Positions 24,001 through 27,829 of a stretch of DNA of 64,000 bases are shown here, in pieces (within the stretch, counting starts at the first letter, position 1; each line of letters begins with the position of its first letter). This DNA is from Candidatus Aenigmatarchaeota archaeon (GTDB lineage: Archaea > Aenigmatarchaeota > Aenigmatarchaeia > CG10238-14 > SCSR01). Where the stretch lies: positions 13,263 through 77,262 of the forward strand of contig JAWCME010000002.1 in assembly GCA_039091335.1 (NCBI GenBank). The letters are read 5' to 3'. The position numbers were made by a program.

Positions 24001-27000
24001 AAGCCAGTATAGTTTTCTACATCAGTAGATAAATTTGCTTGTCCACCTATATCTAGGGTTAAAACAAGTATATCAAGTTTTTTTCTCGCTAGATAAATTG
24101 CTGCTGTTATTCCTGCAGGACCAGCACCAACTATTATAGAATCATAAGGAACTATAGATGCTACTTTCATTCTCTCTAATTAATTTTAAATTAATATCTT
24201 ATAAAATTCTTTATTACATTTGGAATTTCTTCTATTAAATCGCTTGTAATAATACCCTCGCTGTATTTTTTTGCTGCAATTTCTCCACTTTTTCCGTTAA
24301 TGTATGCTGCAGCGCAGGCTGCGGTAAAAACATCTACATTTCTTGCAAGATATGCTCCTAAGATTCCAGCCAAAGTATCACCCATTCCCCCTTTTGTCAT
24401 TACAGGGGAGCCAGTTCTATTTAAAGCAACTTTAGTTCCATCAGAGATCACATCAACATGACCCTTTAACAATATTGTTGTTTTAAGTTTTTTTGCAGTT
24501 TCTCTAACAACCTCAGCCCTTTCTTTTAAATTTTTTGAGACCTTAACCCCAGACAACACATACATTTCAAAGGAGTGGGGGGTAAGAACAAAATTTTTGT
24601 TTTTTATTACCTCCTTTTTTAATGAGATTGCGTGAATTGCATCAGCGTCTATTACACAGGGCAAATCAAGATTTTTAAGATATTCTAAAACAGCATCAAA
24701 AACTTCTTCTTTCCTACAAAGCCCACCTCCTATAACAACAGCACTCTTGTTTTTTGTGAATTCGATTAGCTCTGGCAAATGTTTTTTATTTAAAAACTCT
24801 CCTTTCAAAGGATACGCTATCAAGTCTGGCAAAAAAGATGCTATGATATTTGCAGCCCTTTCCGGTGCAAGTATTGTTACTAAATCTACCCCGGCCCTTA
24901 AAGCGGCCAATGCATTAAATACAGGAGAACCAGAATAATGTTTGCTTCCTCCTATAACCAATAAATGTCCAAAACAATATTTATGCGACCAAGCGTCTCT
25001 CTTCCTATAGATTTTTTTGAGAACACTTTCATTCACTTCAATCATTTTCATAATTTAATTATACTGTTTATTATTAATTAAGAGAGGAATGAAAAAAATA
25101 AGGGTTGGTATCTTTTCATTTACTTGTGATGAAGGATGTAGTATGAGCATACTTGAAATATTAAATAAAAAATTTTTTGAATGGAAGGATTTTATTAAAA
25201 TAGAACATTTCAGGCTTTTGAAATCAAAGAGCAGAACAAAAAATTTAGATGTTGCGTTTATAGAAGGAGCAATATCAACATTTAAAGAAAAGAAAAGTAT
25301 AGAGGAAATAAGAAAAAATTGTAAAAAAATTGTTTTGATTGGGAGCTGTGCAATTAGCGGTTCTCCTTCAAACGCAAGAAATTTTTTTGATGAAGAAAGA
25401 AAAAAAGAGATTCAAGGGATTATTAAAAAATTTGGTCATATGGAAAAGGTTTTTGCGGCGAGTGAAATAATTAAGGCAGACTATTATGTTTTTGGATGTC
25501 CGATAGAAGAAAGGTGTTTTGTTGAGACGATGGAAAAAATTTTAAAGGAATTTGGTGTTAAGGGTGCATCATGGGTTTGAGTTGAATATAGATGGTATAA
25601 GTAAGACAGAGGGGCATGCTGGTCTTGAAATAAAAGTAAGGAATAATAAAGTGGAGGAAGTAAAATTAAAGGTAAGCGAGAACAAAAGGTTTTTCACGCA
25701 AGCAGTTAGGGGGAAAAAATTTTATGAGGTTCCAAATTTTCTATCTAGGATATGTGGTACTTGCAGTATTGCACATGTGCTCGCATCCATAGAAGCCATA
25801 GAAAGGGCTTTGGGTATTGAAATTTCACATCAAACAATTGTGCTAAGAAGGTTACTTATGTTTGGTTTGATTATAAGGGACCATGCGATGCATCTCTATT
25901 TTCTTTCCTTGCCAGACGTATTTAAAAAAGATTCTATAATTGAGCTTTTAGAAAAAAAGCCAGAAATTGTAAGAGATGCATTTGAAATCAAGGCTGCTGG
26001 AAACAGCATTAGCAAGCTAGTTGGTGGAAGGGCAATCCACCCCTATCTATGCACCATAGGTGGTTTTTTGAAAATTCCAAAAGAAGAAGAGATAAGAAAA
26101 ACATTGAAAGAATTGAAGGCGATTAGGGAAAAAATTTTCCCACTTCTCGAAATCTTTTACGATTCAAACCTATCTTTTGAAAATGAAACAAACTATGTTG
26201 CCCTTTGCACACCAAGTTTTGACTTTTTGGAAGGTGAAATAAGAAGTTCAGATGGCTTAATCATTCCTGAAGATAGGTTTTGGGATTTTGTAAACAGGGT
26301 TGTTTTGCCTTACTCTCAATCAACAGCCTTCCAATTTTCAGGCAAGCCTTATAGGGTTGGGGCTTTGGCAAGAATAAACTTAAACTCAAAAGCATTGGAT
26401 GAGGATACAAAGAAAGATGTCAAAATTTACTTAAAAAAATTCCCTTCTCACAACATTTTTTATAACAATCTTGCACAAGGAATAGAAATACTTCACTCAA
26501 TAGACGCTTCAATAAAAATACTTGAGGGGTATGATTTCAAGGAAGAAAGAATAAAAGAAATAAAGGTAAAGGAAGGGGAGGGGGTTGGTGTGGTAGAAGC
26601 ACCAAGGGGAACTCTTTATCATATGGTTTACTTGGATTCAGAAGGCAAAGTTAGATTTATGAATCTTGTGATACCAACTGCCCAAAACCAAATCCAAATG
26701 GAGCTTGACATAAGAGATTTAGTGCAGAAAAATTTAGGGAAGAGAAAACACTCAATACAACACAAGGTTGAGGCTTTGATAAGGGCGTATGACCCATGTT
26801 TTAGCTGTGCAAGCCATTTCTTAAAGGTTAGATGGGTCTGAAAGCAAATTTACAAGCTTTTGAACAATGTTTTTTTTCTTTGAAATAGGAATACATATTA
26901 TTTTAAAACTTTCAATAAGTCCCAATCTCTTCAAAATTCTTAGCTCAAAACTTAAATCAAAGTCGTGCATAGAAAAAATCTTTTCTCTTTTTATTCTTTT

Positions 27001-27829
27001 AAAATCTTCTATTATCTCAACATTTTTTATTCCTTTTGCGACATCCATTATGATGAGGTTTTTTCCCTCTTTCTCCAAGTTCTCAACAACATCAAAAAAC
27101 GTAAAATTTATCCAAGGAAGTTCATGTTTCAATTTTTTCGCTATGTTTATTGCAACATTGTTTTCCTTCAAAAGAGGATTTCCAAAAACAAGAATCTTAA
27201 TTTTTTCTGGTTTATCTACTATATAATTCCAATGAATAACAACAGCATCTCCTGTTCTAACGTCTAAAAAACTTCTGTATTTTTTAACCTTTCCACAAAC
27301 TTTAACCAAGGGATTTTTTCCTACTTTCAAAACCTTACCAAACTTTACTTTACATTTTTCTCTTATTCCAGGAATTTTATTATGTTCTTTGAGAAAATAC
27401 CTTCTTATCACTTCTTTGTCTATTTTTTTCTTCCCCATTTTTTTCGCAATTTTTTTGAGATAAAAAAGAGCAACTTCAAAAAGTTTTTCATTCCCATCTG
27501 GTATTTTTTCTCCAAACTCATGCAGAAACAAAAGCCTTCTTACTTCTTCTCTCCCTATTTTAATCTTTTTTTTCGGGTTTTCTAGGCAAGGTAATGCATA
27601 GGAGAAAAAAATATTTTTATCTTCAATCTCCATTTTCTATCCTTTCCACTGCAAAATTATTCACACAAACAACTCTATCTCCAACCCTTAATCCGTTAAT
27701 CATTGAAATATTTACTCTTGATTTTTTCCCGTTAAAATTTACTAAAGCTATTTTTCCTTTCAATTTTTCAACCTTTCCTATTTTTGAAAAACACATACTA
27801 AAAATTAATATAAAAGCCATATAAATTAA

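Follow-up and report, generated by a model that had tools for sequence, protein, structure and literature searches.

A two-subunit [NiFe] hydrogenase without HypD, HypE or HypF in an Aenigmatarchaeota archaeon and its relatives

The hydrogenase locus

The window, by which we mean the whole stretch of 64,000 nucleotides analysed here, belongs to a metagenome bin of an Aenigmatarchaeota archaeon (G000; 569,737 bp in 29 contigs, 87.4% complete). It carries a [NiFe] hydrogenase locus at positions 25089-27796, coordinates given by a first-pass annotation that we checked and found correct as window positions. The genes correspond to a two-subunit [NiFe] hydrogenase of the 'hyd2' type, which is cytosolic and a relative of group 3b. 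The features are:

23238..24170, minus strand: thioredoxin-reductase-type flavoprotein with a CAIC motif (PF07992, E 1.5e-46)
25089..25580, plus strand: hydrogenase small subunit, 163 aa (PF01058, E 1.6e-19)
25552..26841, plus strand: large subunit of the hydrogenase (hyd2 clade, a relative of group 3b), 429 aa from a TTG
26821..27633, minus strand: whole open reading frame g00325, 270 aa; its matches to HycI (E 0.012) and to DUF6390 (E 1.3e-4) both fall below cut-off
26821..27207, minus strand: HycI/HybD-like endopeptidase domain, residues 143-270 of g00325
27208..27633, minus strand: 'N-module', residues 1-142 of g00325, a five-helix domain and a HypC-like OB barrel
27623..27796, minus strand: small HypC of 57 aa, with a Met-Cys start at the second ATG

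The large-subunit gene begins within the last part of the small-subunit gene. Its likelier start is a GTG at 25564 (425 aa); the orthologs begin MH. The protein matches PF00374 well (E 4e-30; 105.7 bits, cut-off 25.8) and aligns end to end with the alpha subunit of Pyrococcus furiosus SHI (9nez_D, E 8.9e-64), while the ShyA model (E 6e-87, 292 bits) and the HydA equivalog (237 bits) stay below their cut-offs of 700 and 880. The first-pass annotation had described a large subunit with both CxxC pairs and a cleavable C-terminal end, and this is what we find. The motifs are RICGTCSIAH and DPCFSCASH-FLKVRWV, seven residues lie beyond His418, and the four cysteines, E16, A-P-R-G, P..QN and H418 are invariant across 17 orthologs (35-78% identity). 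Among 91 hyd2 rows the N-terminal RxCGxCxxxH is kept in 89 and the C-terminal DPCxxCxxH in 88, the exceptions being partial rows, and the motifs are alike in genomes that have HypD (10) and genomes that lack it (81). Judged by these residues, the predicted Ni-Fe site is complete. Our results support the view that the hydrogenase is intact and under purifying selection. Selenocysteine was considered for the large subunits of G086 and G024 and rejected, as the in-frame TGA codons come before the Met start.

The small subunit aligns to only residues 1-147 of the SHI delta subunit (261 aa) and reaches 66 bits with the HydD equivalog, far from the cut-off of 500. At 163 aa it does not extend to the region of the medial and distal clusters, found in small subunits of about 250 aa; the median length in the clade is 161-167 aa. 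Three cysteines are nearly invariant in 72 hyd2 small subunits (C13 in 70, C87 in 71, C137 in all 72). A fourth stands at position 17 (CDEGC) or at position 14 (CCED[SN]), depending on the sequence. The likely ligands here are C13, C17, C87 and C137, and the predicted proximal [4Fe-4S] cluster is the sole cluster of the subunit, in agreement with the earlier description of a small subunit that holds only the proximal-cluster cysteines.

The protein that had been described as having a weak HycI-protease half needs a fuller description. The match is indeed below cut-off (15.9 bits against 23 for PF01750, 16.9 against 47.45 for TIGR00072), but g00325 is a real endopeptidase fused to a HypC-like module of a DUF6390-related family. 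Judged by eye, the acidic, Asp and His residues of the endopeptidase are where they are expected. In relatives it is a separate gene beside the large subunit (mostly 127-146 aa, 36-57% identity), and a homolog is kept in that place in 21 of 21 loci of the order. The fusion to the N-module occurs only in G000 and G043. Relatives encode stand-alone N-module homologs, whose open frames span about 174-208 aa and whose called ORFs measure 148-190 aa. In an AlphaFold2 model of the N-module (pLDDT 94), residues 93-142 superpose on residues 1-59 of HypC 2ot2 (Z 7.5, rmsd 1.6 over 50) and on 3vyu_A (rmsd 1.3 over 50). Y12, C16, A55, Y79, H84, C94, V131 and H134 are invariant in the alignment. The DUF6390 profile (PF19927) gives 22 bits against a cut-off of 25, over model positions 175-217 of 244. 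Nevertheless, the N-module is a shorter relative of DUF6390, as seen in the common architecture and Cys/His pattern.

A HypC had been reported at the locus as well, and the 65-aa ORF passes PF01455 at 41.5 bits (cut-off 28.5); the 57-aa form misses TIGR00074 (23.7 bits against 48). Its orthologs also start Met-Cys. VHVG is a HypC motif, and by eye its His is missing from the small HypC. Among 118 Aenigmatarchaeota genomes of the order, HypC is present in 32 and homologs of g00325 in 29, and both track the hydrogenase.

Hyp genes in the order and beyond

In the contigs of G000 (87.4% complete) neither HypD nor HypE has a match at E<=10. The best matches for HypA and HypB reach 13.7 bits (cut-off 28.9) and 15.6 bits (cut-off 121.2), so that the reported lack of HypA stands. 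HypF gives two partial matches only (27.5 and 17.6 bits against 466). One could suspect a HypF gene split over contig ends, but the piece on contig C5 matches an ORF of about 330 aa, which we take to be TsaD/Kae1-like, that occurs in every relative. The piece on C4 is a stand-alone ORF of 90-105 aa, presumably an acylphosphatase, that is present in nearly all 118 genomes, often beside what we read as GAPDH/PGK; these names are our own reading rather than the outcome of a family scan. The contig ends of G000 showed no partial hyp fragments. Hence, the central claim of the first-pass annotation, a two-subunit hydrogenase without HypD, HypE and HypF, is borne out: the enzyme motifs are complete and the searches with Hyp profiles are empty or weak.

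A large-subunit match is found in 27 of the 118 genomes, and in 8 of the 34 that are at least 90% complete. Twenty-four of the 27 are hyd2. The enzyme of G010 and G098 is 3b-like but more distant, and that of G048 is of the Mvh type, with hyp genes of its own. The enzyme had been called kept across the order; it is shared by relatives, but patchily (24 of 118 genomes). HypD exceeds its cut-off in two of the 118 genomes, HypE in one and HypF in three. None of the three does so in any of the 24 hyd2 genomes, which extends the earlier observation that hydrogenase-bearing relatives lack HypD, or in the two with the distant 3b-like enzyme.

Where canonical HypD, HypE and HypF are present in the order (G048, G018, G006) they are readily found, at 235-840 bits. 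HypD, HypE and HypF (and HypA and HypB) are therefore really missing rather than too divergent to be seen, which speaks against the earlier caveat that divergent Hyp proteins might escape the models. The hyp cluster of G048 belongs to an Mvh/Hdr-type enzyme and serves as a positive control only. A candidate HypE in G086 (120 bits) was also discarded, being a member of the AIR-synthase family with a similar ThiL score, whose end, ...KIFE, has no C-terminal Cys.

G018 is a sibling species, in the same genus, of four hydrogenase-bearers (G016, G017, G019 and G020), and it has HypD, HypE and HypF. Its bin is fragmented and its hyp genes lie on contigs of 1.7 kb and 4 kb. The G018 HypF adjoins a ValRS 81-85% identical to that of the four siblings. 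Their bins include the ValRS region in assembled form, with no HypF at that place. Contamination does not explain the Hyp contigs of G018 and G006, since their GC content (34-36%) is that of the rest of the bins and the ValRS is close to that of the siblings; we regard them as authentic. The chance that one cluster was lost by accident from all 26 genomes is about 4e-24 to 1e-23, and 1e-10 for the nine genomes that are at least 90% complete.

The Hyp-less hydrogenase is far wider than the Aenigmatarchaeota order. Our wider sample consists of the 80 closest large-subunit matches in one genome collection. Only 15 of these 80 genomes have HypD, and 65 do not. In the large-subunit tree the window sequence and the CPR sequences (44-51% identity) fall into one clade of 89 rows with an SH-aLRT support of 100. 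The HypD-less carriers almost all have small genomes (0.6-1.6 Mb). Among them is a CPR genome of 1.1 Mb (G158) whose hydrogenase lies on a contig of 1,147,868 bp, and in which HypC, HypD, HypE and HypF were not found. Seven of the 15 HypD-bearing genomes are large, 2.7-4.3 Mb (G124, G125, G163, G165, G167 and G186, with Nitrososphaerales among them), and eight are small, 0.9-1.8 Mb (G140, G150, G157, G160, G173, G179, G185 and G195/G196).

The presence of HypD changes at least eight times on well-supported branches of the tree, and it differs within the close pairs L085/L087 and L058/L067. In the latter pair, L067 has HypF directly beside the small-subunit gene, and L058 has an N-module gene upstream of it. 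Genes for HypD, HypE and HypF stand beside the same truncated-small-subunit enzyme at L052/L128, L075, L092/L129 and L067. Because they adjoin the same enzyme in Nitrososphaerales and in a few CPR/DPANN genomes, the loss of Hyp proteins is secondary and repeated. Thus hypD, hypE and hypF (and hypA and hypB) have been lost here, in 23 other hydrogenase-bearers of the order, and in most CPR/DPANN carriers.

Known relatives and the electron partner

Pyrococcus furiosus and Thermococcus kodakarensis encode a full Hyp set. Their sulfhydrogenase (9nez, 9e15, 5yxy) is the best solved relative of the window enzyme: the alignment covers the whole large subunit (E 8.9e-64 to 7.5e-62), the extension after the C-terminal His is likewise short, and the N-terminal half of delta aligns. 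In contrast to our two-subunit enzyme, the sulfhydrogenase has four subunits, alpha, beta, gamma and delta (PMC7304191), and its delta subunit is 261 aa long. A closer likeness is found in CPR bacteria, for which Jaffe et al. (2020, PMC7304191) described 'hyd2', a group-3b-related enzyme of two subunits whose small subunit is truncated and which has a hypC-like gene as a neighbour. The CPR small subunits average 164 aa (163 aa here), and both systems have a hypC-like family nearby, no adjacent beta or gamma gene, and a PF07992 flavoprotein near some loci (PMC7304191). The CPR enzymes are bacterial, whereas the window belongs to a DPANN archaeon. From the shared features and the membership in the CPR clade, we infer that the window enzyme is the archaeal counterpart of CPR hyd2.

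The two-subunit architecture is therefore already known, and only the missing cofactor synthesis is new. The main text of PMC7304191 mentions neither maturation nor a lack of HypD, HypE and HypF, nor a DUF6390-type accessory protein. We found no mention of this lack in CPR/DPANN [NiFe] carriers in the accessible portions of the open-access literature, supplements aside (including PMC8407114, PMC8421398, PMC7507113, PMC9123182 and PMC9258230). Our literature search returned no papers on DUF6390.

HoxY of group 3d (5xf9_C, 189 aa; 7t2r_E, 179 aa) is also short, and matches the N-terminal 100 residues of the small subunit weakly (E 1.9e-8 to 1.5e-7). HoxY is known to hold the proximal cluster only. 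It works in HoxFU diaphorase complexes, whereas no such subunits are seen here. Group 3b beta and gamma genes do not occur among the conserved neighbours in 21 loci of the order or in 59 wider loci, and the 2Fe-2S domain of the gamma subunit (PF10418) has no match in G000. The flavoprotein at 23238..24170 (TIGR01292 308 bits, below the cut-off of 343) is present in 8 of the 21 order loci and is only a possible redox partner. In the 59 hyd2 loci, the genes near the enzyme include OFOR alpha (11), OFOR beta (10), a single-cluster ferredoxin (10) and a ferredoxin-reductase-type flavoprotein (12). This ferredoxin-hydrogenase neighbourhood is seen in other phyla rather than in the window; in G000 itself, a ferredoxin of the same single-cluster type comes after an Ior-type oxidoreductase.

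The direct electron donor could thus be a small ferredoxin with a single cluster, which a 2-oxoacid:ferredoxin oxidoreductase would reduce in fermentation, and the hydrogenase would release H2. These neighbourhoods make ferredoxin coupling a reading that we would neither favour nor disfavour. The hydrogenase might also exchange electrons with NAD(P)H via the flavoprotein.

Proposed maturation without HypD, HypE and HypF

What the genome has retained are factors that act on the large subunit: the small HypC, a second HypC-like module with a Cys/His helical domain, and the C-terminal endopeptidase. We propose that the apo-large subunit would be bound by HypC-type proteins, which would also carry the iron unit, and that the DUF6390-type fusion would take the place of the HypC-HypD scaffold. 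Nickel would enter without HypA and HypB, and the endopeptidase would then cut off the last seven residues, those beyond His418. For the two CN ligands and the single CO ligand, no recognisable source is seen among the genes of G000. They, or the finished iron unit, could come from outside the cell, either from a Hyp-encoding partner or host or as free CO and cyanide; in our judgement outside supply is more likely than an unseen enzyme. We consider it somewhat more likely than not that the enzyme is still matured to a working metal site. The whole explanation (a ferredoxin-fed hyd2 enzyme, lost Hyp genes, HypC-type and DUF6390-type proteins carrying the iron unit, and ligands from outside) is more tentative, and we would place it just short of an even chance. 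The reading of the first-pass annotation, an active hydrogenase whose Fe(CN)2CO centre is supplied by the host or by an unknown route, is partly supported.

For that unknown route, the DUF6390-type family is a concrete candidate. DUF6390 and the N-module have the same architecture, in which a complete HypC fold follows a helical domain, and share two invariant Cys and two invariant His in the same pattern. The fold of the small HypC and of the OB part of the N-module and DUF6390 is that of HypC, HybG and HupF (3vyr-3vyu, 2z1c, 2ot2), with the equivalent of the essential Cys2 kept. This Cys is N-terminal in HypC, whereas in the fusion proteins it is internal, preceded by a helical domain of 90-150 residues. 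In the HypC-HypD scaffold the iron is bound jointly by Cys41 of HypD and Cys2 of HypC (review, PMC12134894); HypD was not found here. The helical domains themselves have no Foldseek match at E<=0.001, and the best VIA-align rows cover only the OB part, which does not imply a new fold.

DUF6390 or the N-module is present in 50 of the 65 HypD-less genomes versus 2 of the 15 HypD-bearing ones, both with DUF6390. Across eight phylogenetically independent pairs, HypD and DUF6390/N-module change in opposite directions in a median of five, in the same direction in none, and without difference in three (sign test, median p 0.06). Fifteen of the 65 HypD-less genomes have neither, including G113, G114 and G106 of the Aenigmatarchaeota order, which also lack HypC. 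Three genomes (G005, G006 and G008) have an N-module without a detected hydrogenase. That a DUF6390-type protein takes part in Hyp-less maturation is possible, though somewhat less probable than the opposite. It is unlikely that CPR and DPANN possess a full HypD/E/F-independent route, in which DUF6390 or the N-module would be a one-protein iron scaffold that replaces HypC-HypD and takes up CO and cyanide not made by known enzymes. It is not plausible that a helical domain of 90-150 residues stands in for the ATP-dependent chemistry of HypE and HypF.

One could also argue that hypD, hypE and hypF lie in a part of the genome that systematically fails to enter the bins. Every genome in our samples is a bin, the hyp genes of G018 are on contigs of a kind often dropped in binning, and HypD differs within the close pairs L085/L087 and L058/L067. 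A strain-variable island with hyp genes could have been missed by all bins for one reason. But for 26 genomes random loss has a probability of about 4e-24, four siblings of G018 have an assembled ValRS region without HypF, and L058 has an N-module gene where L067 has HypF. In addition, a contig of 1.15 Mb, nearly a whole CPR genome, has no hyp genes, and no partial hyp pieces are found at the contig ends of G000. Such an artefact is very improbable, and the absence of HypD, HypE and HypF is in all likelihood real.

If the absence is real, the Fe(CN)2CO unit or the Hyp proteins themselves might still reach the symbiont from its host via a cytoplasmic connection, with the symbiont's HypC-type proteins being ordinary chaperones. 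The synthesis genes were lost at least eight times while the enzyme and the late factors were kept, which is the usual signature of complementation by a partner. The HypD-less carriers are nearly all in the range of 0.6-1.6 Mb, and three genomes of the order have only the large subunit, the small subunit and the endopeptidase. However, we know of no mechanism by which the protein-bound Fe(CN)2CO unit passes between cells, and the bias of DUF6390 and the N-module towards HypD-less genomes would be left unexplained. We find pure maturation in trans unlikely. Less likely still is that H2 chemistry has been lost and the four-Cys site holds other metals (e.g., Ni-Fe without diatomic ligands) in a redox or sensing role. 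The absence of HypD, HypE, HypF, HypA and HypB would fit this, as would the missing beta and gamma partner subunits of group 3b, a small HypC without the VHVG His, and the function of hyd2 being called 'uncertain' by Jaffe et al. (PMC7304191). Against it, the Glu of EGH and the cleavage motif are kept and identical to those of hyp-flanked relatives, and the endopeptidase is retained in all 21 loci. A hydrogenase endopeptidase is known to act only on the nickel-loaded precursor. The Arg and Thr/Ser of APRG and PT.QN are also kept, as in relatives beside hyp genes; in Desulfovibrio structures these residues hydrogen-bond the cyanides.

Our results mean that dozens of small genomes, from two domains, keep a well-conserved [NiFe] hydrogenase clade without HypD, HypE and HypF. 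Should the enzymes be active, then the cofactor can come from other cells, the assembly route is much simpler, or the site is chemically different. In that case there would be consequences for hydrogenase biochemistry and for heterologous production, which could profit from a minimal maturation set. There would also be consequences for what ultra-small symbionts are understood to draw from their hosts, and for metabolic predictions that score such organisms as H2 producers from structural genes alone. DUF6390, a family without an assigned function, gains a testable role.

A parallel is found in archaeal [FeFe] hydrogenases, which are mostly without HydEFG and are likewise kept in DPANN and other archaea that lack canonical maturases (Greening et al. 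2024, PMC11216029). They are a different enzyme class with another cofactor and other maturases, and were active after artificial maturation. In that study, a full HydE/F/G set is reported for 5 of 130 genomes, and the authors conclude that an alternative maturation pathway is likely.

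Locus and structure of the hydrogenase

The hydrogenase of the window is of an already known kind, hyd2, a group-3b-related clade of two-subunit [NiFe] hydrogenases with a truncated small subunit (Jaffe et al. 2020, PMC7304191). The hydrogenase unit at this locus consists of four genes, listed here in window coordinates with their neighbours. The N-module is our name for amino acids 1–142 of the third gene product, a helical domain followed by a HypC-like OB barrel.

25089–25580, + strand: hydrogenase small subunit, 163 aa (PF01058, E 1.6e-19)
25552–26841, + strand: hydrogenase large subunit (PF00374 at 4e-30; ShyA model at 6e-87)
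26821–27633, − strand: 270-aa ORF (g00325), fusion of N-module and endopeptidase; convergent with the large-subunit gene and overlapping its stop
27623–27796, − strand: HypC, 57 aa, with a Met-Cys start at the second ATG of a 65-aa ORF
Upstream of the unit, other strand: NAD(P)HX dehydratase, thioredoxin-reductase-type flavoprotein, short-chain dehydrogenase
Downstream of the unit: GAPDH, PGK and TIM, named from sequence alone

The two subunit genes overlap by 29 bases. Since orthologs begin MH.., the large subunit more probably starts at the GTG at 25564 (425 aa). Against the ShyA model the large subunit scores 292 bits, below the cut-off of 700. It matches the alpha subunit of P. furiosus sulfhydrogenase I (9nez_D) over its full length (E 8.9e-64) and also aligns full-length with T. 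kodakarensis HyhL (5yxy_A). An alignment of 17 orthologs (35–78% identity) shows both Cys pairs, Glu16 of the EGH motif, Ala-Pro-Arg-Gly, Pro..Gln-Asn, the Asp-Pro ahead of the last Cys pair and His418 to be invariant, and all 17 sequences end 6–9 residues past the position of His418. Judged by these residues, the large subunit is intact.

Only residues 1–147 of the 261-aa delta subunit align with the small subunit, which therefore lacks the domain bearing the medial and distal clusters. Across 72 hyd2 small subunits, C13, C87 and C137 are conserved in 70–72 sequences, a fourth Cys lies at position 17 in CDEGC (as in the window) or at 14 in CCED[SN], and most sequences contain exactly four Cys. 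This pattern is compatible with one [4Fe-4S] cluster whose first motif is unusual, and it agrees with the earlier description of a 163-aa protein that keeps only the proximal-cluster cysteines. Neither form of the first motif is the usual CxxC, and its Glu is almost invariant (70/72).

About 33 kb from the hydrogenase, the window encodes a LUD-domain protein with a 4Fe-4S dicluster (62036–63331, − strand) and a CCG-domain protein (60041–60769, − strand), a LutB/LutA-like or HdrD-like pair. The 570 kb of the source genome contain about ten ORFs bearing a radical-SAM-type CxxxCxxC motif, none of them near the hydrogenase.

HypD, HypE and HypF within and beyond the order

The source genome (G000; 569,737 bp, 29 contigs, 87.4% complete) yields no match at E≤10 to models of HypD or HypE, two of the makers of the Fe(CN)2CO centre, and nothing close to the cut-offs for HypA or HypB. 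The model of the third maker, HypF, finds two partial matches only (27.5 and 17.6 bits). Rather than as HypF, we read these as the TsaD/Kae1-like protein and the stand-alone acylphosphatase of nearly all relatives.

Among the 118 genomes of its order (Aenigmatarchaeota), 27 have a large subunit. It is an ortholog of the window's in 24 (50–100% identity), a more distant 3b-like enzyme outside the hyd2 clade in G010 and G098, and part of an Mvh/Hdr-type hydrogenase in G048. HypD exceeds its cut-off in two of the 118 genomes (G048, G018), HypE in one (G048; in G018 a contig end cuts the gene, and the remaining piece scores 235 bits) and HypF in three (G048, G018, G006). None of the three proteins was found in the 24 hyd2 genomes, in G010 or in G098. 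The claim of the first-pass annotation, a hydrogenase kept without HypD, HypE and HypF, is confirmed for all 24 hyd2 genomes, and the wider sample below broadens it.

G018 (74% complete), in which no large subunit was found, is congeneric with four hydrogenase carriers that are 90–95% complete (G016, G017, G019, G020). Next to its HypF gene lies a ValRS gene 81–85% identical to theirs; nucleotide similarity to the siblings starts at the ValRS start and stops short of HypF, and no HypF was found in the ValRS flanks of the four. The hyp contigs of G018 and G006 have 34–36% GC, matching the rest of their bins. Canonical HypD, HypE and HypF therefore belong to the gene pool of the order, where the models do recognise them; that the hydrogenase-bearing bins lack them reflects a difference in gene content. 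The HypF and HypD of G018 are closest to those of Nitrososphaerales (43–44% identity). In G048 (L126, C1:1–20000), ORF translations indicate an Mvh-type hydrogenase with MvhD, HdrA and HdrB/C-like genes; hypE, hypC, hypD, hypF and a protease are also present, at 52% GC as in two other contigs of that bin. An AIR-synthase-family protein in G086 (L044, C8:1405–2412) reaches 120 bits against the HypE model and 109 against ThiL but lacks a Cys at its C-terminus; G074 and G022 encode proteins like it.

Scanning one genome for each species yielded 589 confirmed stretches related to the large subunit. The best 80 loci, which we examined, come from Aenigmatarchaeota, Micrarchaeota, Iainarchaeota, Woesearchaeota, many CPR phyla, two Nitrososphaerales and a few larger bacterial genomes. 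At most of these 80 loci the small subunit has 150–180 aa, which matches the hyd2 form of CPR bacteria. There, Jaffe et al. (PMC7304191) report a truncated small subunit averaging 164 aa and a neighbouring hypC-like family; they see neither a beta nor a gamma subunit next to the enzyme, place a PF07992 protein close to some of the loci and state that the "function remains uncertain".

HypD is present in 15 of the best 80 genomes (9/50 + 6/30). In one HypD-less genome (G158) the enzyme lies on a contig of 1,147,868 bp out of 1.1 Mb; HypE, HypF and HypC were not found there either. Where present, hyp genes flank the same truncated-small-subunit enzyme: hypE, hypD and hypF in Nitrososphaerales (L052/L128), hypD, hypE and hypF at L075, hypD and hypE at L092/L129, and hypF at L067. 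The large-subunit tree has 103 rows, of which 89 form the hyd2 clade (SH-aLRT 100), 10 of them HypD-bearing and 79 HypD-less. The HypD label changes at least eight times on well-supported branches, and the catalytic motifs are alike in both sets. From the hyp genes beside the same enzyme, these label changes and the unchanged motifs, we read hyd2 as Hyp-dependent where Hyp is present, the synthesis genes having been lost many times.

The large subunits of Nitrososphaerales (L052, L053, L127, L128; hypE, hypD and hypF adjoining) are 54% identical to the window's and nest in the Aenigmatarchaeota clade (SH-aLRT 99), which suggests gene transfer between these two archaeal phyla.

HypC-type proteins and routes of maturation

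The part of the 270-aa ORF from residue 143 to 270 is homologous to separate genes, with open frames of mostly 127–146 aa, that adjoin the large subunit in every relative and were found at 21/21 hydrogenase loci of the order. The weak HycI-protease half proposed earlier is the endopeptidase, though it scores under the family cut-offs, and the other half can now be described as a HypC-fold N-module. Homologs of the latter in relatives stand alone (open frames ~174–208 aa, called ORFs 148–190 aa); fusion of the two is confined to G000 and G043. In its AlphaFold model (pLDDT 94), the N-module shows five helices and then the barrel, whose residues 93–142 superpose on residues 1–59 of HypC 2ot2 (Z 7.5, rmsd 1.6 over 50 residues); the fit to 3vyu_A is similar (rmsd 1.3 over 50). 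With the barrel so superposed, Cys94 occupies the position of HypC's essential Cys2. Y12, C16, A55, Y79, H84, C94, V131 and H134 are invariant in 12 family members. In canonical maturation, according to PMC12134894, the iron is held by HypC Cys2 and HypD Cys41. The small HypCs of Hyp-less genomes (window 27623–27796; L009, L046, L054, L068, L070) keep the Met-Cys start and lack the His of the VHVG motif; in many of them a Cys stands one residue before that position. This His is retained in the HypC of the HypD-bearing G048.

Clustering the neighbours of 59 hyd2 loci identified a protein of ~240 aa as Pfam DUF6390, present in 31 of the 107 loci gathered, at least two of which have long small subunits (L109, L119). 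Its model (pLDDT 91) comprises a 150-residue helical domain and then a complete HypC fold (versus 2z1c_A, Z 5.3, rmsd 2.1 over 71 of 71 residues), and P14, C20, G21, F48, I58, G79, H125, C151 and H212 are invariant in 25 members. DUF6390 and the N-module share a pattern in which the helical part and the HypC part each carry one such Cys and one such His, and an Atlas search connects the two families. No DUF6390 match was found in 14 control genomes. Counted by whole genomes, 50 of the 65 HypD-absent genomes among the best 80 have DUF6390 or a full N-module (15 have neither), as do 2 of the 15 HypD-present ones (13 have neither); Fisher's exact test gives p = 8e-6, for genomes that are not independent. 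In eight independent tree pairs differing in HypD, DUF6390/N-module was opposite in a median of 5, the same in 0 and without difference in 3 (sign test, median p 0.06). Its link to the absence of HypD is suggestive, not proven. Counting against the link, three genomes of the order (G106, G113, G114) yielded only large subunit, small subunit and endopeptidase, and three others (G005, G006, G008) carry an N-module although no hydrogenase was detected in them. It also counts against the candidate that so small a helical domain cannot take over the tasks of HypE and HypF.

We tentatively favour Hyp-independent maturation via HypC-type proteins, with CN and CO ligands from outside the cell, and would put its chance a little short of even. 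For archaeal [FeFe] hydrogenases, Greening et al. (PMC11216029) report a full maturase set in 5/130 genomes and propose an alternative pathway. That the host plainly supplies the cofactor seems unlikely to us, and altered chemistry of the enzyme, whose catalytic motifs are those of its HypD-bearing relatives, somewhat less likely again. An assembly artefact behind the missing hyp genes is improbable: if a hyp cluster were present in every genome and each missed it with probability (1 − completeness), all 26 genomes (the 24 of hyd2, G010 and G098) would miss it with a joint chance of 4e-24, and the nine that are at least 90% complete with one of 1e-10, a calculation that ignores systematic bias. 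The little probability that remains we leave to something not considered.

Eight MAGs of hot-spring Aenigmarchaeota carry 3b hydrogenases, with maturation unmentioned in the consulted part of that paper (PMC8407114), and the word "maturation" never appears in Jaffe et al. (PMC7304191). Our literature search, with subscription papers and supplements outside its scope, found no paper on CPR or DPANN [NiFe] carriers without HypD, HypE and HypF. New here are the repeated loss of HypD, HypE and HypF across two domains with enzyme and late factors (HypC-type proteins and C-terminal endopeptidase) retained, the Hyp association of the same enzyme in other lineages, and a candidate for maturation without Hyp, the HypC fusion of DUF6390 type.

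The electron partner

The beta and gamma subunits of group 3b are absent from the conserved hydrogenase neighbourhoods, and the source genome has no gamma-type 2Fe-2S domain. Near hyd2 in the 59 wider loci we found the alpha subunit of a 2-oxoacid:ferredoxin oxidoreductase (11 loci) and its beta subunit (10), a single-cluster ferredoxin (10) and a flavoprotein with Pyr_redox_2 and Reductase_C domains (12); within the order, a thioredoxin-reductase-type protein is the most frequent neighbour that has no part in maturation (8/21 loci). On another contig of the source genome (L165, C23:45000–52000), the genes for an aminotransferase, a 2-oxoacid:ferredoxin oxidoreductase of Ior type (614 + 211 aa) and a 69-residue ferredoxin stand in a row; this ferredoxin has a single cluster and shares its Pfam type with the one at the wider loci. 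This oxidoreductase and ferredoxin are a likely source of reduced ferredoxin. The predicted role of hyd2 would be ferredoxin-linked H2 evolution, at about even odds.

Two further neighbours were named by eye: a class-V aminotransferase or cysteine-desulfurase-like gene near the hydrogenase (4/21 order loci, 9/59 wider loci), and a stand-alone acylphosphatase adjoining GAPDH/PGK within a few kb of it (8/21 order loci).
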